From a virus (taxonomy: Duplodnaviria; Heunggongvirae; Uroviricota; Caudoviricetes), in the IMG/VR virus record IMGVR_UViG_2630968766_000008, positions 1 through 38,909 of that record: DNA of 38,909 nt; one strand, written 5' to 3'. Positions 1,419-13,867 of the stretch are shown in pieces (position 1 is the first letter of the stretch; every line of letters begins with the position of its first letter). Under the pieces are notes generated by a model that was given only the letters and a program-made list of their open reading frames with translations, was not told where the DNA came from and did not search any database. Made by a program: the position numbers and the translations under genes.

Positions 1419-3860
1419 TTAAAAATCAGCCTGACTCGGGATCAGTTTTTGCCAGATAACTGAAACGTATTTTGCCTGGTAACGAGCGTCATCAAGTGCA
1501 TTATGGCGCTCACCTTCGAATGGGATAGCAGTTCTGGCATCGAAGTCTATGGCTTTCCCCAGCTCAACGATTGTGCGTACATCGCGATCGTTGCAGTAGC
1601 GCCACGGGCAGGGGATACCCTGTCGTTCGTATGAACGGCGTAAAATCACGTTGTCGAAGTTGGCCCCATTACCCCAGACCTGAACAAAAAATTCACCGGA
1701 GTTTTCGTCGATAAATTCCCGCAATTGCAGTAGTGCATCATCTAACGGGATTTCATCGGTCATAATGGCAGACTGCGCTTCACGTGATTGCTTTAGCCAC
1801 CATTTAATGACGTCACGATCAATGACTCCGCCAGCAGTATCCAGATCGATGGTCTTGCTAAATTCCGGTCCCATATCTCCGGTTTGTGGATCGAAAAATA
1901 TTGCGCCTATTGAGATAATCGGGGCATCTGGATTTTTTCCCATGGTTTCAAGGTCGATCATCAGATGAATCCCCGCTCTGCTGGTGGATGTGAGCTTATG
2001 ATGACCATTCACCTTAATTAAGGGATCTGTCGCCTCGCCAGTTTTATTATCGCTGGCGTGATGCTGATTGCCGCCAGGGTTCTCCTTGTGTGGATGTTCA
2101 GCGCCTTCCATTTCCTCCGGATCATTTTCCTGAACTTCAACCTGATTCTCTTCATCGAATGTTTCCTGGTATGTTGCGTCGCCCATCACCGCGCCACAAT
2201 CAGGGCAGTTGCCGCCACCGCTCTGACCGCAGGCGGTGCAGACTTTTTCCGGTTCCTGTTGCGCTACTGGTTCGGATTGTTTCGTTTCTGGCTCGTTTTG
2301 TAACGCATTTGGGCTGTTTTGTTCCGCTTTTTGGTCGTTCCGTTCCGATTCATGCTGGTTCTGGTTCACAGAATCGCGAGTCTGGATCCCCTTGACCCAT
2401 TTCGGATCATTAGGGTCGCTAATCCCCTCAACAAATTCACCACGCGATACAGCAAGTAACTTATCGGCGTCAGGCTGGCTGATATTGGCTGCCTGCATAA
2501 TTTTGTTTACTTCGTCAGCGGTGACTTTTACTTGGTTAGCGGAACTCACCTGCGACTGAGCATCCAGCGACTGCGCGTTCTGGCAATGTTCAGTTGTATC
2601 CGGTTCCATTGTTTCAGTTGTTGCCTGTTCACCTGCCATTGCGTCAGATGGTTGTGGTTTTTCTTCTTCTGTTTCACGCTCAGTAACCACCTCGCGGTTA
2701 ATTTCTTCCAGGATATCTTTTTCCGGCGTATGCCGGGCAGCTGTGAGAGTTTCCTTGCTGGGGTTCTCGTGATCAGTTTCTGTCAAATAGGCGTTGATAT
2801 ACCCCTGAAGGCGTCCCGGGTAGTGATAAAATTCAGGGTGTGCACTTCGGATAAGTGCAAAAATAGCGGCGCGGGAATAGTCCAGAATACCCGGGGTTGC
2901 ACGAAGTGCTGCGGACCATTCTTTGAACGGACTTTCTTTTTTCAGGACTACTTCTTTTGCGCGACGATAAACGCTGCCCGGAATTTCATAAATATTAAAA
3001 TCCATCGGAAGTGTGGCTGCTGCAATCTCCACATCCAGTGTGTCGAGGGTGTGTACTAAATTCGGATTGCGATCGGTTTTGTTCCCACCGCCAGCATTAG
3101 CACCGGAAGCCGTGCGGGTGATGCGTGAAACACGATTTCCTTTCATCCACTCTTTTGTCAGCAGACCCCGATCAGTGTAGTCAGCGTCCAGGTATGCTTC
3201 GAAAAAAGCAGTTATTAGTCCCAGGTCTGAATTACCAGGATTAGGGAAAACTTTGTCAGTGTCACGAACCAGTTTGTGGAGGTCGCGAATCTCCAGCGAG
3301 TCGAGCAGACTGGTTTTATGCGAAATAGCAAGGGCAGTAACAGCCGGTAGTTCTTCAGCCCGTGCAATGTGTAATGCCTGGAGTTCGTCGCGTGAAACGT
3401 GCGTTACTGGTTTTTCGCTGCCGTGTTGAGCAAGCCAACGAATGGGCAGTTCCTGACCGGAGACAGGCAGAAGCATGCTCTCCTCAATCTCAGTCATGTC
3501 TTCGCCGTTGATGTTGGTATTGTCAGTGCTGGCTGGTTTGTCCTGAACAGAGGGGGAAGGGCCGATAAATGTCATTGTGATGCCATCTTTCCCGCCTTTT
3601 TCATAGCGGTTGCAGAATTCAGTATCAAACACGCCTTCTGGCGGAAGGTCGTCAACAACGGGCAAATTGACGCGGACGGGTTTTTTAAAGTCGTCTTCAT
3701 CATAATCGTTGTCATCCATTGCGGTAATGCAGCGGGAGATTGCAACAGATAATTTTTTTGCTGTAGTCCAGTAAAAACCACCTTTAATTCCCAGGCGTTT
3801 TCTTACTTTGTCATTTTTTGCTTCGCAATATAGTGCAAATTCTTCTTTATCAGTGCTCAT
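1419..3860 (-). CDS. Large early-left protein with C-terminal DnaQ-like (DEDDh) 3'-5' exonuclease domain; sits where the ydfE remnant lies in Qin
   Basis: 813-aa ORF. C-terminal ~180 aa carry exonuclease motifs (MIDLETMG, ...WGNGANFD..., H..ALDDARYQAKY). A central CTACG..CPDCG cysteine pair suggests a zinc knuckle. Follows ydfD in the dic operon. Confidence 0.65.
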   Translation of the reverse strand: MSTDKEEFALYCEAKNDKVRKRLGIKGGFYWTTAKKLSVAISRCITAMDDNDYDEDDFKKPVRVNLPVVDDLPPEGVFDTEFCNRYEKGGKDGITMTFIGPSPSVQDKPASTDNTNINGEDMTEIEESMLLPVSGQELPIRWLAQHGSEKPVTHVSRDELQALHIARAEELPAVTALAISHKTSLLDSLEIRDLHKLVRDTDKVFPNPGNSDLGLITAFFEAYLDADYTDRGLLTKEWMKGNRVSRITRTASGANAGGGNKTDRNPNLVHTLDTLDVEIAAATLPMDFNIYEIPGSVYRRAKEVVLKKESPFKEWSAALRATPGILDYSRAAIFALIRSAHPEFYHYPGRLQGYINAYLTETDHENPSKETLTAARHTPEKDILEEINREVVTERETEEEKPQPSDAMAGEQATTETMEPDTTEHCQNAQSLDAQSQVSSANQVKVTADEVNKIMQAANISQPDADKLLAVSRGEFVEGISDPNDPKWVKGIQTRDSVNQNQHESERNDQKAEQNSPNALQNEPETKQSEPVAQQEPEKVCTACGQSGGGNCPDCGAVMGDATYQETFDEENQVEVQENDPEEMEGAEHPHKENPGGNQHHASDNKTGEATDPLIKVNGHHKLTSTSRAGIHLMIDLETMGKNPDAPIISIGAIFFDPQTGDMGPEFSKTIDLDTAGGVIDRDVIKWWLKQSREAQSAIMTDEIPLDDALLQLREFIDENSGEFFVQVWGNGANFDNVILRRSYERQGIPCPWRYCNDRDVRTIVELGKAIDFDARTAIPFEGERHNALDDARYQAKYVSVIWQKLIPSQADF

Positions 3861-3953: not shown

Positions 3954-4145
3954 TTAAAATCCTGCCGGGATTTCGTTATTATCCTGGTGAATAACTTTAT
4001 CGACCGGATAACAGTTGCCTGGAATTTTCTGTTCGGTTGCTGCTGCCATACATTCCTGCATTGTTCTGTGAACACTGACTGCAATATCAACTGGCTCTCC
4101 GGAAACAAGAAAAACCGTCAGAATAAGTGCAAATACTGGATTCAT
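3954..4145 (-). CDS. ydfD: YdfD-like small lysis protein (63 aa) with N-terminal hydrophobic helix
   Basis: 63-aa ORF (MNPVFALILTVFLVSG...) whose ATG overlaps the dicB stop as ATGA, the same arrangement as dicB-ydfD in the E. coli Qin prophage; size matches YdfD from memory. Confidence 0.6.
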   Translation of the reverse strand: MNPVFALILTVFLVSGEPVDIAVSVHRTMQECMAAATEQKIPGNCYPVDKVIHQDNNEIPAGF

Positions 4146-4330
4146 TGTGCACATCCTTTTGGCATCAGACGTAAACGGGCCAGCATTGAAACAATGCATA
4201 CTTTATTTAATAACTCCCGTTCGTGTTTTCTTTTGTTAATGGCATCTTCAGTAAATACAGGATTACTGATAGTGACACCAATTTCAAAACAACCTTCAGA
4301 CGTATTAACGTTTGGTAATAACGTTTTCAT
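4142..4330 (-). CDS. dicB: Cell division inhibitor DicB (MinC-activating)
   Basis: 62-aa ORF MKTLLPNVNTSEGCFEIGVTISNPVFTEDAINKRKHERELLNKVCIVSMLARLRLMPKGCAQ, nearly identical to my recollection of E. coli K-12 DicB; GAGGG Shine-Dalgarno 8 nt upstream; immediately downstream of the dicF sRNA. Confidence 0.8.
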   Translation of the reverse strand: MKTLLPNVNTSEGCFEIGVTISNPVFTEDAINKRKHERELLNKVCIVSMLARLRLMPKGCAQ

Positions 4331-4499
4331 TATCGCGCCCTCAACAATGAGTTTTGTGATGCGGTGCCTGGTGCCTCCAGGTGACGTTAACCAGTTAACA
4401 ATTAACGCCGGATACAGAGAATCCACCCATAACACTGTTTTTGGTTTTAACTGTTCCGCGTGCGCTTAGCCGCATTCACCGCATCACAAAATTCACTTT

Positions 4500-4557
4500 A
4501 AAAAGGGCGGCAGAGCAGTCACGGAGTAAAACTGATACCGCCAAACGTCACCAGAAA
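4500..4557 (-). ncRNA. dicF: DicF small RNA (ftsZ translational inhibitor) including its intrinsic terminator
   Basis: Reverse complement of 4500-4557 reads TTTCTGGTGACGTTTGGCGGTATCAGTTTTACTCCGTGACTGCTCTGCCGCCCTTTTT, which matches the DicF sequence as I recall it, ending in a GC-rich hairpin (GGCGG...CCGCC) plus U-run. Lies between ydfC and dicB as in Qin. Confidence 0.75.
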
Positions 4558-4898
4558 ATTGATAACAGAGGGCGTTGCAGCGGGGTTGTCACTTAAGCGT
4601 ATGGTCAACCTGACAACCCGGTGTCCTCAACGGGGGAAGGAATAACCCCGCCATACTTACCGCCGCGCCATTTCGCGGATTGCCACAACCGGAAGCGCAC
4701 GGTCGACGAAAATTTAACGACAGGCTATCTATGAACCAGCTACCTCGCCGTGCGCTTTCGCGTTATGGTCTGACTTTTCAGGGAAATATCCTTTCAGTAA
4801 ACTGTCAGTGCCGGATGCTCACCCGTGTCCGGCGCACGCACTCCACCTCACCCGTGGAGAACTCCTTAATTACCAACCTTAGCTTCGTTGGTTAGCTA

Positions 4899-5117
4899 TT
4901 AACGCGGGTATGTAATCATTCTGGCAATGCTTAATGCCGCTGCTTTTTCCAGCCTGGTGATATCCTGCTCCAGAGCGGACAGATTTTCAGCCTGCTTAGC
5001 CCTGGCTTCATTGGCCCATTTCAGATCCTGCGCTGCATTAATTTTCTGGCGCATCCACTCATAAAGTTCATCATCGGTATAGTCTGGCGCGATGATGACG
5101 GGTTCTCGTTTCTGCAT
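4899..5117 (-). CDS. ydfC: YdfC-like hypothetical protein (72 aa) of the dicB operon
   Basis: 72-aa ORF with strong AGGAG Shine-Dalgarno 5-6 nt upstream of ATG; size and position (upstream of dicF) match Qin ydfC. Confidence 0.55.
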   Translation of the reverse strand: MQKREPVIIAPDYTDDELYEWMRQKINAAQDLKWANEARAKQAENLSALEQDITRLEKAAALSIARMITYPR

Positions 5118-5188: not shown

Positions 5189-5545
5189 TTACTCGAGAGG
5201 AAATTGGTTATGAATACAATCAAGTTTTCTTGCCCAGAATGTGGTGGCGAAGTCTTTGACACATCCTTTAAACCGCAGGGCTCTGACAGTTTCGCGGGAG
5301 CCATCTGCAAAAATTGTGGTCACCTTGTAACTGAAGATGAGTCCTCGCAGTTCGATGACGAAATCGTTGACAATATCTTCGGTGCACTCACCAGAGACTT
5401 TCTGAAATAAAGACGCATACCGCTTAGTTACCGCTCTGATAACTCTTACCTGTCCGGCAATGGCGCTGATGTCAATATAAAGCGCCATTGCTGCTTCTTT
5501 GCCGATCCCGTGATGCCTTCCATTCTGATGTTTGACTTCGCCCAC
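5189..5545 (-). CDS. Hypothetical first gene of the leftward dicB operon (position of Qin ydfA/ydfB); start uncertain (GTG 5545 or ATG 5488)
   Basis: Open frame directly downstream of the leftward promoter; AGAGGA 7 nt before GTG. An antisense zinc-ribbon ORF on + (5210-5410) competes with it, so only one of the two is likely real. Confidence 0.3.
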   Translation of the reverse strand: MGEVKHQNGRHHGIGKEAAMALYIDISAIAGQVRVIRAVTKRYASLFQKVSGECTEDIVNDFVIELRGLIFSYKVTTIFADGSRETVRALRFKGCVKDFATTFWARKLDCIHNQFPLE

Positions 5546-5625: not shown

Positions 5626-5654
5626 AATTTAGTTTTCTCATGAATGTTGGTCAA
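5626..5654 (-). promoter_or_regulatory. Leftward early promoter (pL / dicB-operon promoter analogue) with operator repeat in the spacer
   Basis: On minus strand: TTGACC (5654-5649) - 17 nt - TAAATT (5631-5626); spacer contains TGAGAAAACT operator-like motif; a second copy TGAGAAAACTCA at 5665-5676. Confidence 0.5.
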
Positions 5655-5738: not shown

Positions 5739-6146
5739 TTACTGATGTTTGTTACGTTTGCGAGCTTCTAGTAGCTCGGTGAATAGGCGATTAAAATTCT
5801 CAACGCGGGCACGGAGTTCGCTGATTTGTGCTTGCTGCTCTGATTTTGGAAGTGCGCGATACAATCGCAACATCTCCAACTCATCTTCCGATAAGTCTAA
5901 GGCGCTGTTGAGTGCAACTGGTGGATCTGGTGTTTTATCCTCGTCACCAAACAGTATCCAAGTTGGTGAACATTGCAATACCTCAGCCAGGCGATGCAAA
6001 TTTTGCCCGCGCGGGGCTGTATGGTCGCTTTCCCATAGTGAAATTGATGAGCCAGATACGCCAGCGGCTTTGCTTAAATCGTTTTGACTTAAACCAACCT
6101 GTTTGCGTCTTTCTCTAATTCGTTGACCTAAAGTTTTCTCGTTCAT
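5739..6146 (-). CDS. dicA: DicA-like repressor (XRE-family HTH, C2/cI analogue)
   Basis: 135-aa ORF; N-terminal HTH (QRIRERRKQVGLSQNDLSKAAGVSGSSISLWE) and conserved VLQCSPTWILFGDEDK segment as in E. coli DicA; divergent from Cro-like dicC. Confidence 0.85.
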   Translation of the reverse strand: MNEKTLGQRIRERRKQVGLSQNDLSKAAGVSGSSISLWESDHTAPRGQNLHRLAEVLQCSPTWILFGDEDKTPDPPVALNSALDLSEDELEMLRLYRALPKSEQQAQISELRARVENFNRLFTELLEARKRNKHQ

Positions 6147-6167: not shown

Positions 6168-6209
6168 TTGACTTGAGATTCCTTGAGTGATTACTATTGA
6201 GAAAACTCA
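6168..6209 (+). promoter_or_regulatory. Rightward early promoter (pR analogue) with operator TGAGAAAACTCA
   Basis: TTGACT (6168-6173) - 17 nt - TTACTA/TACTAT, followed by palindromic-ended operator TGAGAAAACTCA at 6198-6209, the same 12-mer found twice left of dicA. Confidence 0.45.
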
Positions 6210-6223
6210 ACTTTGGAGGGGTG

Positions 6224-6451
6224 ATGTTTAAATCAGACGTAATTAATTTTTATGGGACGAAAGCCAAAGTAGCGAAAGCTGCTGGTGTTGATCCATCTGC
6301 TGTTTCTCAATGGGGGGAACTGGTTCCTGAAGGTCGCGCGATGCGCCTGCAAGAGGCATCCGGCGGGGAACTTCAGTACGACCCCAAAGTTTATGACGAA
6401 TATCGTAAGGCAAAGCGGGCGGGGCGGTTGAACAATGAAAATCACCCCTGA
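6224..6451 (+). CDS. dicC: DicC-like Cro-type regulator
   Basis: 75-aa ORF from ATG 6224 (GGAGG Shine-Dalgarno 5 nt upstream); sequence ...VPEGRAMRLQEASGGELQYDPKVYDEYRKAKRAGRL... resembles E. coli DicC; divergent to dicA. Confidence 0.75.
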   Translation: MFKSDVINFYGTKAKVAKAAGVDPSAVSQWGELVPEGRAMRLQEASGGELQYDPKVYDEYRKAKRAGRLNNENHP

Positions 6452-6986
6452 ACAGGTTTGTGAGGCTCTGGATGCCTGGGTATGTCGACCAGGAATGACA
6501 CAGGAGCAGGCGACGATATTAATCACGGAAGCATTCTGGGCTCTGAAAGAACGCCCGAACATCGATGTTCAACGCGTCACGTTTAATGATGGCGAGGTTG
6601 ATCAACGGGCGCTGGGCGTTAACCGGGTGAAGATATTCGAACGCTGGAAAGCTATCGACACCAGGGATAAGCGGGAAAAATTCACGGCGCTGATTCCGGC
6701 AATTATGGAGGCTATCCGGATCAGCGATTTCAGGTTGTATTGTGAAATTACTGACGGAAAAAGCATTACGTACATGATCGCCGGGTTAAACAAAGAATAT
6801 GGCGATGTGGTGGAGTCCGGGCTGCTTTTTGCGGATCCATCTGTTGTGGAACGTGAGACTGACGAGCTTATAGAAAAAGCTATTGCTTTCAAGCATGCGT
6901 ATCGTCAGCAATATCAATATTACTTTGCAGATAAACAAATGTCTGCCAGGGGTTCGTATGAGTATCGATGCACTACGATGGGCTAA
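6435..6986 (+). CDS. Hypothetical protein, possibly YdaT-family (occupies the cII position)
   Basis: 183-aa ORF directly after the Cro-like gene, overlapping it by 17 nt; assignment to the YdaT family is from positional analogy and vague motif memory only. Confidence 0.4.
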   Translation: MKITPEQVCEALDAWVCRPGMTQEQATILITEAFWALKERPNIDVQRVTFNDGEVDQRALGVNRVKIFERWKAIDTRDKREKFTALIPAIMEAIRISDFRLYCEITDGKSITYMIAGLNKEYGDVVESGLLFADPSVVERETDELIEKAIAFKHAYRQQYQYYFADKQMSARGSYEYRCTTMG

Positions 6987-8484: not shown

Positions 8485-9255
8485 ATGGAGACTGTTTTTG
8501 ACGCACTGAAAGCGATGGGAAAAGCCACGTCGGTAGAGCTGGCTGCGCGACTTGATATCAGTCGTGAAGAAGTGCTGAACGAACTATGGGAACTGAAAAA
8601 GGCTGGCTTCGTTGATAAAAGCGTATACACCTGGCGTGTGGCTGGCGAAGGTGAATCCGGGGTAGCCGAAGAGCAGCCAGCACAATCTGAAGTACAGGAT
8701 GTGCTAACCAGGGAGGTCGAACGAAAAGTTACCGCTGACATGATGATTGAGTTTATCGGTCAGGAGGGTGCTAAAACGTGTGAGGAACTGGCGGGTAAGT
8801 TCGGTGTCAGCACTCGCAAGGTTGCTTCCACGCTGGCGGTAGTAACCGCAACGGGGCGGCTGGCACGCGTAAACCAGAACGGTAAATTTCGCTACTGCAT
8901 GCCGGGCGAGAATTTACCAGCTGAGCCGAAAGCTGCACCGGTAACGAAAACGGCTGGTAAGGCATTTCCTCAGCCCGCAGGTGTTGCGTTACCAGTACAG
9001 GAGGCTGCAACACAGGAAGATATTAAAACAGAAACTGTGGCGGACATTGTGCAGTCGCTGCCATCGTTCACCGAAACGCGAGCGGATGACCTGATTTTAC
9101 CATCGCTGCATATGGCAAACCGCGAACTGCGTCGAGCGAAAAGTCATGTCCAGAAGTGGGAGCGTGTCTGCGCCGCGCTGCGTGAGCTGAACAGGCACCG
9201 GGATATTGTCCGACAGATTGTCGATTCTTCCCGCCGTGTTGTATCGGAAAAGTGA
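8485..9255 (+). CDS. Hypothetical protein with two winged-helix-like repeats
   Basis: 256-aa ORF with Shine-Dalgarno GGAGG; two repeats of a [16 protein letters not shown].../[16 protein letters not shown]... wHTH-like pattern. Confidence 0.5.
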
Positions 9256-10551: not shown

Positions 10552-10736
10552 TTATGACCACAATTACCAGAGAACGACTGCTGGAAATGTTTGCGTGAAA
10601 AGGAGAGTTAAGTAAAATCGCCGCGGGTGCTTGAGGCTATCTGCCTCGGGCATGAACACCAACGGCAGATAGAGAAAAGCCCCAGTTAACATTACGCGTC
10701 CGGCAAGACGCTTAACATTAATCTGAGGCTCAATCT

Positions 10737-10949
10737 ATGAACGGCAAATCTAGGTTAGCCTCTTACGTGCCGAAAGGCAAGGAGAAGCAGGCTATGAAGC
10801 AGCAAAAGGCGATGTTAGTCGCCCTGATCGTCATCTGTATTACCGTCATTGTGACGGCACTGGTAACGAGGAAAGACCTCTGCGAGGTACGAATCCGAAC
10901 CGGCCAGACGGAGGTCGCTGTCTTCACAGCTTACGAACCTGAGGAGTAA
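10737..10949 (+). CDS. mok: Mok-like regulatory reading frame (in-frame N-terminal extension of hok)
   Basis: 70-aa ORF sharing stop with hok, as for mokC/hokC in E. coli K-12 (69/50 aa). Confidence 0.5.
   Translation: MNGKSRLASYVPKGKEKQAMKQQKAMLVALIVICITVIVTALVTRKDLCEVRIRTGQTEVAVFTAYEPEE
10794..10949 (+). CDS. hok: Hok/Gef family type I toxin (membrane-depolarising peptide)
   Basis: 51-aa MKQQKAMLVALIVICITVIVTALVTRKDLCEVRIRTGQTEVAVFTAYEPEE, very close to HokC/Gef; AAGGAGAAG Shine-Dalgarno; followed by strong intrinsic terminator. Confidence 0.85.
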   Translation: MKQQKAMLVALIVICITVIVTALVTRKDLCEVRIRTGQTEVAVFTAYEPEE

Positions 10950-13590: not shown

Positions 13591-13620
13591 TTGACCAGAC
13601 ACATTGTCCGGGGCTATATT
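13591..13620 (+). promoter_or_regulatory. Late promoter pR' analogue (Q-modified)
   Basis: TTGACC (13591-13596) - 17/18 nt - TATATT (13615-13620) directly downstream of Q. Confidence 0.5.
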
Positions 13621-13682
13621 CCTCACGCGCCAGCAAAATCTGGCGTCGGGATTAGGAACCCCGGATTGAGACCGCGACAGAT

Positions 13683-13706
13683 ACACGCCGCGAGCGTGTT
13701 TTTTAT
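13683..13706 (+). terminator. tR'-like intrinsic terminator of the short late leader RNA
   Basis: ACACGCCGCGAGCGTGT hairpin followed by TTTTTTATT, ~80 nt downstream of the putative pR'. Confidence 0.5.
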
Positions 13707-13867
13707 TGTCGTATGCACGCGCACATCTGAATTATGGTGGGGCGTATGGGGGAGCTGAAAGGCTCGCCGGTTGGTTTCCCGGTAGTTCCTAACCCTGTAC
13801 GTCTCACCACCCGATGATTAGGAACCTGACGGTGGTGATAGTTTAGAAACCACTAGAGGGCGTCATT

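Follow-up and report, generated by a model that had tools for sequence, protein, structure and literature searches.

A conserved, mobile RNA domain precedes DicF in a Qin-like prophage and is probably part of a cassette for small RNA release in temperate Enterobacterales phages

DicF is a small RNA (sRNA) of Escherichia coli that represses ftsZ and pykA via its 3' region and xylR via its 5' end, aided by Hfq (PMC5069750). Like the sRNAs cut by RNase E or RNase III, e.g., those derived from 3' untranslated regions (review PMC9438474), it has a polycistronic source, is released by endonucleases and ends at an intrinsic terminator. Its precursor is a polycistronic transcript from dicBp, upstream of ydfA (PMC10448788, Ragunathan 2023, confirming Faubladier 1990). 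RNase III makes the 5' end of a 190-nucleotide (nt) species, RNase E is required for the 53-nt DicF, no internal promoter was found for DicF, and in K-12 a terminated transcript of 1146 nt and a read-through transcript of 1608 nt both exist (PMC10448788). DicF, its operon and its 190-nt precursor are therefore already known biology. Here we describe the dicF locus of a virus of the class Caudoviricetes (IMG/VR record IMGVR_UViG_2630968766_000008), analysed as one stretch of 38,909 nt, hereafter the window, to which all positions refer. We show that the last ~195 nt of the gap between ydfC and dicF are a conserved cassette, in which a helix of ~23 base pairs (bp) is directly followed by a 116-nt junction. 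This long helix and the junction, the latter hereafter called the module, are probably a conserved cassette for sRNA biogenesis, i.e., a general phage platform that releases small RNAs from the early-left mRNA.

The identification of DicF at 4557-4505 is close to certain. The preliminary description of this DNA had placed DicF with its terminator on the minus strand of 4500-4557, and its coordinates proved exact. The Rfam model RF00039 matches 4556-4505 (-) over model positions 1-52 of 52 with 76.7 bits (gathering score 48, E = 2e-15), with no non-canonical pairs flagged in the alignment. Compared with dicF of K-12 MG1655 (b1574; NC_000913 1649382-1649434), positions 4557-4505 are identical at 53 of 53 nt, so that no mismatch falls in either target-pairing region, and the UUUUU tail is likewise identical. 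The terminator hairpin has a predicted energy of -15.9 kcal/mol and is followed by this UUUUU; a simple terminator scan misses it because of its loop rule of 3-8 nt. Given the identity with K-12, DicF in the window would be expected to have the K-12 function.

4505-4557, minus strand: DicF sRNA, 53 nt (Rfam, K-12 identity)
4500-4504, minus strand: U tail of the DicF intrinsic terminator (sequence, same in K-12)

Between the ydfC stop (ending at 4899) and the DicF start (4557) lies a gap of 341 nt, 4558-4898, which measures 340 nt in K-12. The two are 97-98% identical and differ by eight substitutions and one 1-nt indel, an extra C of the window located in a hairpin. This gap had been described as an untranslated spacer with no credible open reading frame (ORF). 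The untranslated part of that description stands: only short ORFs are present, of 31 amino acids (aa) on the sense strand and of 71, 37 and 51 aa on the opposite strand, and the two that were tested have no Pfam family. The indel lies within two of these ORFs, which means a frameshift between close relatives, and the substitutions fit RNA pairing instead; a coding role for the gap was therefore rejected. The notion of a passive spacer does not stand, as the 3' 195 nt consist of the conserved long helix and a pseudoknotted four-way junction made up as follows.

4574-4689, minus strand: conserved structured domain (module), 116 nt (covariance model, covariation, folds)
4689-4682 with 4581-4574, minus strand: closing helix, GUUGUGGC with GCUGCAAC
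4678-4674 with 4667-4663, minus strand: helix H1, CCGCG/CGCGG
4661-4659 with 4622-4620, minus strand: helix P2, GGU/ACC, 3 bp, invariant
4650-4646 with 4635-4631, minus strand: H2, a variable hairpin of 5-7 bp with a C/U-rich loop
4619-4608 with 4598-4583, minus strand: H3, 9 bp and a 3-bp extension
4656-4651 (between P2 and H2) with 4604-4599 (H3 loop), minus strand: pseudoknot, GUAUGG with CCAUAC

The evidence for this fold comes from a family of related sequences, which was gathered from viral, genome and metagenome collections by patterns anchored on the two most conserved blocks. It comprises more than 320 instances with ~110 unique sequences from Escherichia, Shigella, Citrobacter, Trabulsiella, Erwinia, Izhakiella, P1-like elements and gut metagenomes. 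Pattern matches without the second anchor block were unrelated chance hits and were discarded, likewise the loci L132, L293 and L334. In a MAFFT alignment of 46 well-separated sequences, not fitted to structure, 93.4% of the cells are paired and 17 pairs are changed on both sides, compared with 7.1 +/- 1.7 after shuffling (0/500), while controls with the structure slid along the alignment are 33-53% paired. An alignment fitted to the covariance model, which leans towards structure, gives 96.3% of cells paired and 19 pairs changed on both sides (7.8 +/- 1.8 shuffled, 0/500; slid controls 34-52%). RNAalifold applied to the unfitted alignment independently recovers H1, H2 and H3, together with P2 and the extension of H3, and misses both the closing helix and the pseudoknot. 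Folded in isolation, the 127-nt window sequence adopts exactly the architecture listed above, as do the RNAs of phage Ayreon and of Izhakiella in their full context. All 65 distinct variants of H2 form a hairpin with differing stems, and H3 has three doubly changed pairs in Izhakiella and four in the group of locus L166. The pseudoknot position that is free of the search patterns is U-A in 214, C-G in 106 and U.G in 3 of the 323 instances, with no mismatch, and both the U-A and the C-G states occur in lambdoid and in P1-like lineages. The frequent G.U pairs in the helices indicate that it is the DicF-sense transcript that folds in this way.

The covariance model built from the family (R1) detects the module only once in the window, with 154.4 bits and E = 8e-62; the rightward operon contains no copy. 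No Rfam 15 model (4227 covariance models) matches 4558-4898 at E <= 10, and no Rfam family was found for the module in Ayreon, P1, Erwinia, Izhakiella and terminator-less loci. A tRNA- or tmRNA-like element was considered for the cloverleaf-like topology and rejected, as ARAGORN finds no gene in 4300-5000 and there is no Rfam match at E <= 10. As a side observation, the H2 loop at 4636-4645 (-) reads UUAUUCCUU and is followed by GAGGA; in other lineages it contains UCCUCC or CUUCCUU, and it resembles an anti-Shine-Dalgarno sequence.

These data bear on whether the gap is simply a passive spacer or the remnant of a lost gene, conserved by recent descent and horizontal spread. Such an origin would fit the 95-100% identity of most E. 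coli copies, the mosaic state of the 5' 200 nt and the lack of an ORF with a protein family, and yet we hold it to be extremely unlikely. The 17-19 pairs changed on both sides are far above the shuffles and the slid controls collapse; H2, H3 and the long helix differ in sequence while keeping the same geometry in Erwinia, Izhakiella, Citrobacter, Trabulsiella and P1-type copies; and the module recombines as a unit with differing upstream and downstream partners.

Directly upstream of the module the transcript is predicted to form the second part of the cassette.

4683-4768, minus strand: long helix (helix v), 4768-4745 with 4706-4683, ~23 bp (folds, duplex energy)

Its duplex energy is -35.5 kcal/mol, compared with -23.2 +/- 3.2 for shuffled sequences, of which 1/300 is as low. 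An equivalent helix of different sequence is present in 11 of the 13 lambdoid lineages with an intact upstream region (-27 to -35 kcal/mol, z -2.5 to -6.0). The inner part differs by lineage in a compensatory way, GAAAGCGCACGG/CCGUGCGCUUCC as opposed to GAGAGCAUUG/CAGUGCUCUC, and single C-G to U-A swaps are found also among close relatives. Changes on both sides affect 13 of 26 positions, a count that leans towards pairing because the pairs were set for each sequence by duplex prediction. In the P1-type copies no long helix was found. The base of the helix, CCAUAAC/GUUGUGG, uses the 5' arm of the closing helix of the module, and since GUUGUGG is shared, the two pairings are mutually exclusive. 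The long helix is likely to be the substrate or entry site of RNase III.

The published processing of DicF can be placed on this structure. A 190-nt RNA that ends where DicF ends would begin at 4690-4695, in the 3' strand of the long helix and 1-6 nt upstream of where the closing helix starts. The 190-nt precursor is thus the same molecule as window ~4692-4500, i.e., module, linker and DicF. The publications treat it as a processing intermediate; the conserved fold and its occurrence before other RNAs are added by our analysis. No coordinates of the RNase III site were found in the transcriptome-wide RNase III studies that cite DicF. On the 3' side, the position of the RNase E cut follows from the 5' end of K-12 DicF.

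4558-4573, minus strand: single-stranded linker GCCCUCUGUUAUCAAU, with the RNase E cut at its 3' end, AAU/UUU (4558/4557; the slash marks the cut)

The sequence AAU/UUU at this point fits RN/WUU, which we take to be the preference of RNase E.

We hypothesize the following course of events. Transcription would start from a repressor-controlled promoter upstream of ydfC. The intact long helix would hold GUUGUGG until RNase III cleaves it, after which GUUGUGG would be able to pair with CUGCAAC downstream, thereby closing the junction. At the start of the resulting 190-nt RNA a compact domain would protect the 5' end, and such protection would fit the stability of this RNA in the stationary phase. 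The AU-rich linker of 16 nt past the domain would stay exposed to RNase E, whose cut at AAU/UUU would yield the 53-nt Hfq-dependent sRNA, with the 3' end of DicF set by the intrinsic terminator.

The preliminary description had also noted a hairpin right after the ydfC stop and regarded it as consistent with the RNase-processed precursor.

4872-4892, minus strand: post-ydfC hairpin, ACCAAC (4892-4887), 9-nt loop, GUUGGU (4877-4872), no U tract (sequence)

The stem was found as described; it begins 7 nt past the ydfC stop and has 6 bp. The pair C4891-G4873 is replaced by U-A in K-12 and five other unique variants (AUCAAC/GUUAGU) and by U.G in one, and this compensatory change supports the pairing register of the preliminary description and disagrees with that of the minimum-energy fold. 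That the gap belongs to an RNase-processed precursor agrees with the published RNase III and RNase E work; the hairpin as the processing site does not. A typical RNase III substrate is longer than 6 bp. The position directly past ydfC and the stem kept by a compensatory change would suit an intrinsic terminator or an RNase III site that starts DicF processing, and we nevertheless judge either role very unlikely, as the short stem has an A/U-rich flank, AAUUAAGG, in place of a U tract, and as a published RNase III product of 190 nt puts the cut ~200 nt downstream. With AAUUAAGG after the 6-bp stem, the hairpin was also absent from the terminator scan. Most likely it is a small element in its own right that either stabilises a 3' end or marks the boundary of a module.

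The remaining 5' part of the gap is mosaic. A BLAST search with the gap alone shows that its parts travel separately among phages; the 5' 200 nt are replaced in many relatives, and some phages have no ydfC, yet keep the last ~270 nt of the gap and dicF. In phage Evi (L004:1755-2373), PPompW phages and some E. coli, an insertion of ~630 bp with two small hypothetical ORFs is located at ~4878, past the post-ydfC hairpin, and the homology of other phages to the gap also begins at ~4878. These breakpoints indicate that the hairpin marks a mosaic recombination boundary. Between it and the long helix the minimum-energy fold contains three further hairpins.

4810-4859, minus strand: two hairpins, 4859-4841 and 4833-4810, both loops with CACGGGUGAG (minimum-energy fold)
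4770-4808, minus strand: irregular hairpin iv (minimum-energy fold), pairs kept in 42-44 of 44 variants, almost without variation

In the first two, 39-43 of 44 variants keep the pairs, and there is little variation. Their 10-mer CACGGGUGAG occurs at 4847-4856 and 4818-4827 (-), 29 nt apart, in the loops of these G+C-rich hairpins, and the second of them (4833-4810) recurs between early-left genes of Stx phages (TL-2011c, phi367). A nut-like role was considered for both and dropped, because the Stx-phage copy stands amid ordinary early genes and not near N.

The family shows that the module is not bound to DicF. A piece of ~120 nt (about 4581-4689) is present, with no DicF attached, in phages Ayreon, cdtI and 2H10, in Stx2c phages, and in P1 and P7; the Rfam DicF model has no match in the Ayreon and P1 loci, where a short segment and then an intrinsic terminator come after the module. 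A variable segment of 12-30 nt and an intrinsic terminator, usually opening with UUUGGCGG, follow the module in ~97% of instances. About ten seed types can be distinguished: canonical DicF, a short form that combines the DicF 5' seed with another terminator, a form that keeps the ftsZ-pairing 3' region of DicF behind another 5' seed, unrelated seeds that include CCAUGUUGAUUACC, CAGCCACUGC and AUUGCUGUGUGUAG, and the P1 type. The presence of the same cassette before ~ten other RNAs composed of a seed and a terminator suggests a general platform. In a few members from Trabulsiella (L143), Erwinia (L145), Izhakiella (L146) and locus L052 the terminator hairpins are unusually long (-27 to -33 kcal/mol) and contain GGAGG, 7-9 nt and AUG (AUGUUCUACCG...), which resembles the start of a tiny buried ORF.

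The record of phage P1 (AF234172) labels a 'dicF-like region' in the leader of the ban operon. This region contains the module, in which H2, H3 and the pseudoknot all show compensatory changes, and an intrinsic terminator comes next. The module begins ~25-35 nt past the start at Pban, a promoter under C1 control. Compared with the window, P1 has no DicF, no long upstream helix and a closing helix of different sequence. P1 fits the cassette model because a 5'-proximal module is made there by transcription initiation, not by cleavage.

The same pattern, i.e., a conserved module with variable cargo across the family and some members without cargo, could also mean that the module is itself the functional product. 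A stable RNA of ~135 nt (4690-4558), made by the RNase III and RNase E cuts, would then act in trans or bind a host protein, and the cargos would be add-ons. The C/U-rich H2 loop, present in nearly all lineages, would suit purine-rich sites, e.g., Shine-Dalgarno sequences, and the published Northern DicF probes would not detect a fragment of ~135 nt. As no such RNA has been reported, as the idea derives from the conservation pattern, and as the 5' product of RNase E cleavage is usually degraded, we consider this quite improbable.

The position of the module points to another possible function. In all inspected lineages the cassette is located in the early-left operon, with a cI-type repressor gene upstream of it and, downstream, either kil/dicB, recombination or xis-int genes. 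For Ayreon and cdtI, the distance from the repressor gene is a few hundred nt. The module could be a cis-acting processive antiterminator, like HK022 put or Bacillus EAR, that would bind the transcribing RNA polymerase and take it through the intrinsic terminator of the sRNA itself, and through later ones, into dicB, recombination genes, xis/int or P1 ban. The module is always in a repressor-controlled early operon and in ~97% of instances 20-110 nt before an intrinsic terminator that precedes essential early genes, and HK022 putL, which we located via a published primer, is likewise closely trailed by terminator-like hairpins. No N-type antiterminator gene was seen between the repressor gene and the module in the window and in cdtI (with Pfam on the window ORFs); as to a lambda-type N/nut system, the 118-aa upstream ORF has no Pfam family, and boxA was not searched for. 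The invariant junction and loop nucleotides, the covarying helices and the pseudoknot are what a fixed host partner would impose, and the terminated and read-through transcripts of K-12 would agree with antitermination. Homology to HK022 put was rejected, since BLAST of the gap against HK022 gave only chance 9-11-mers and R1 has no match in HK022. The lack of similarity in sequence or model to putL or the HK022 genome, the lack of an Rfam match at E <= 10, EAR included, the single copy in the window with none in the rightward operon, where HK022 has putL and putR, and the module copies without a terminator downstream all make antitermination unlikely in our view. The RNase III cut just upstream is by itself no argument against it, because put stays bound after cleavage. 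In broader terms, the long helix and the junction could be an uncatalogued mobile RNA of temperate Enterobacterales phages with its own function on the host machinery, as an antiterminator or as a stable ~135-nt RNA, and DicF would be one of ~ten interchangeable cargos; this is possible, though we lean against it.

Several observations weigh against a cassette whose role is sRNA release, which remains the reading that we prefer. The invariant junction nucleotides and the pseudoknot are not obviously needed by a processing scaffold and hint at a specific binding partner. The invariance of the two anchor blocks is partly by construction, since the search patterns fix them; the helices lie outside these patterns save for two H3 nucleotides. 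Given the few members without a terminator or sRNA (L166, L157, L278, L181), sRNA release cannot be the sole role of the module. The nearest-neighbour minimum-energy fold of the 190-nt RNA (-69.9 kcal/mol) pairs the 5' half of the module with the 3' arm of the DicF terminator and is lower than the fold with module and terminator (-61.7 kcal/mol, pseudoknot not counted). A rough tally of pairs between the 3' strand and the sequence upstream was not above that of the shuffles; only the duplex-energy test gave an excess over them. Finally, the fit of the 190-nt 5' end to the module edge depends on the nominal length of 190 nt, and the RNase III and RNase E processing and the dependence on Hfq are presumed for the window from its identity with K-12.

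Some details of these variants deserve mention. In the alternative fold of the 190-nt RNA (4500-4692, -), the module segment GGCGCGGCGGUAAGUAUGGCGGGG is paired to the 3' half of DicF, and the motif GGCGGUA is common to the module and the 5' arm of the DicF terminator. A terminator/antiterminator switch through GGCGGUA was rejected, since it is predicted for the DicF cargo and not for the Ayreon or Izhakiella RNAs. One terminator-less copy runs directly into a ribosome-binding site and an ORF. In others (L166:5132-5800, L157, L278, L252) a long stretch without coding sequence comes after the module, and its first 120 nt or more are conserved between loci even though their modules diverge considerably. 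No Rfam family was found for this stretch, and it may be another structured RNA.

The locus is a dicBF-type early-left operon of a Qin-like lambdoid prophage. The order in the window is as in K-12 Qin, i.e., repressor, ydfC, the 341-nt gap, dicF, dicB and ydfD, followed here by an exonuclease gene.

6197-6451, plus strand: P22-Cro-like gene, facing the DicA-like repressor gene
5739-6146, minus strand: DicA-like cI-type repressor, 135 aa (Pfam HTH_3 1e-16, Phage_CI_repr; same place as K-12 dicA)
5626-5654, minus strand: promoter-like site TTGACC/17 nt/TAAATT, candidate dicBp or PL equivalent (consensus scan only, not evidence of function)
5189-5545, minus strand: 118-aa ORF on the operon strand, no Pfam family
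5204-5410, plus strand: 68-aa zinc-ribbon ORF overlapping the 118-aa ORF (RefSeq HS4: 'ECs_2282 family putative zinc-binding protein')
4899-5117, minus strand: ydfC, 72 aa ('protein YdfC' in the E. coli HS4 locus and K-12; no Pfam family)
4142-4330, minus strand: dicB, 62 aa, after the DicF terminator in the same operon (Pfam DicB PF05358, 5e-40, full length)
3954-4145, minus strand: ydfD (DUF1482; PF07358, 8e-25; K-12 and HS4 annotation)
1419-3860, minus strand: exonuclease VIII-like, 813 aa (Pfam Exonuc_VIII, Rv2179c-like; HS4 'exonuclease')

The promoter-like site is located between the repressor gene and the operon, ~1.12 kb upstream of the DicF 3' end, which fits the 1146-nt ydfABC-dicF transcript of K-12. 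In comparison with K-12 Qin, ydfA and ydfB are replaced by the 118-aa ORF or the zinc-ribbon ORF, and the exonuclease gene stands where K-12 has a ydfE/IS2 remnant; the window prophage is a different and apparently more complete one.

Other RNA elements were seen elsewhere in the window. Between dicF and dicB, 4353-4493 (-) has a sub-threshold match to STnc100 (38.8 bits vs 47), a match that the mEp460 and Evi loci share and that P1 shows in part. At 10625-10799 (+) the Rfam model of the sok antitoxin RNA matches over its full length (107 bits), which indicates that the prophage carries a hok/sok-type type I toxin-antitoxin locus; the identical HS4 prophage has a hokD annotation close by. Three adjacent Rfam matches at 13614-13814 (+), namely c4-a1b1 target sites, isrK and C4 antisense RNA, are a P1/P7-type immI-like antirepressor control region within a lambdoid prophage. 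The same C4/isrK pair also occurs in phage Ayreon, near the module there.

The DicF find itself is routine, being another copy of a 35-year-old sRNA present in about three quarters of the sequenced E. coli strains. The HS4 locus is 100% identical to the window over the 691-nt ydfC-to-dicF stretch, which has matches in 4606 of 5426 complete E. coli genomes, at up to 10 places per genome. The DicF segment alone was found at 6700 places in 3975 of these genomes and the 116-nt domain at 8964 places in 4315, from which it follows that about a quarter of the domain copies carry another cargo. DicF is also present in several sequenced temperate phages, and the record of phage Tritos labels it. In RefSeq (PGAP) most E. 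coli genomes are without a DicF feature, with an ncRNA feature in K-12 only; DicF is systematically unannotated in E. coli genomes.

The conserved unit of this family is the folded precursor domain and not DicF. Our results provide a concrete structural model for the cutting of DicF from its mRNA and suggest why a stable 190-nt form exists. They also point to uncharacterised DicF-like sRNAs with other seeds in pathogenic E. coli, Citrobacter, Erwinia and P1-type plasmid prophages, and raise the question of how early-left genes such as dicB are transcribed past the DicF terminator without an N protein. The cassette was not described in the full-text literature that we searched, also by sequence, although this search was limited and the cassette may be known to specialists; the bare 'dicF-like region' label of the P1 record was the only earlier hint. 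A mobile structured cassette with exchangeable sRNA cargo thus appears to be undescribed so far. The Pas sRNAs of a 2026 preprint, from the late Q/holin region, were considered and are unrelated.

Besides K-12 DicF, its 190-nt precursor and the P1 region, two other described systems are close. HK022 put resembles the module in its location in the early operon of an N-less lambdoid phage, downstream of the promoter and upstream of terminators, and in being a structured RNA with conserved unpaired nucleotides. It differs in that put has ~74 nt with two stem-loops and a triplex (PMC9378689), whereas the module has 116 nt with a four-way junction and a pseudoknot, and in that HK022 has two copies, putL and putR, while the module is found once per phage and its antiterminator function is putative. 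Among the other processed sRNAs we found no description comparable to the DicF cassette, which is distinguished from them by large, conserved, structured upstream signals that move between phages and by seeds that can be exchanged.

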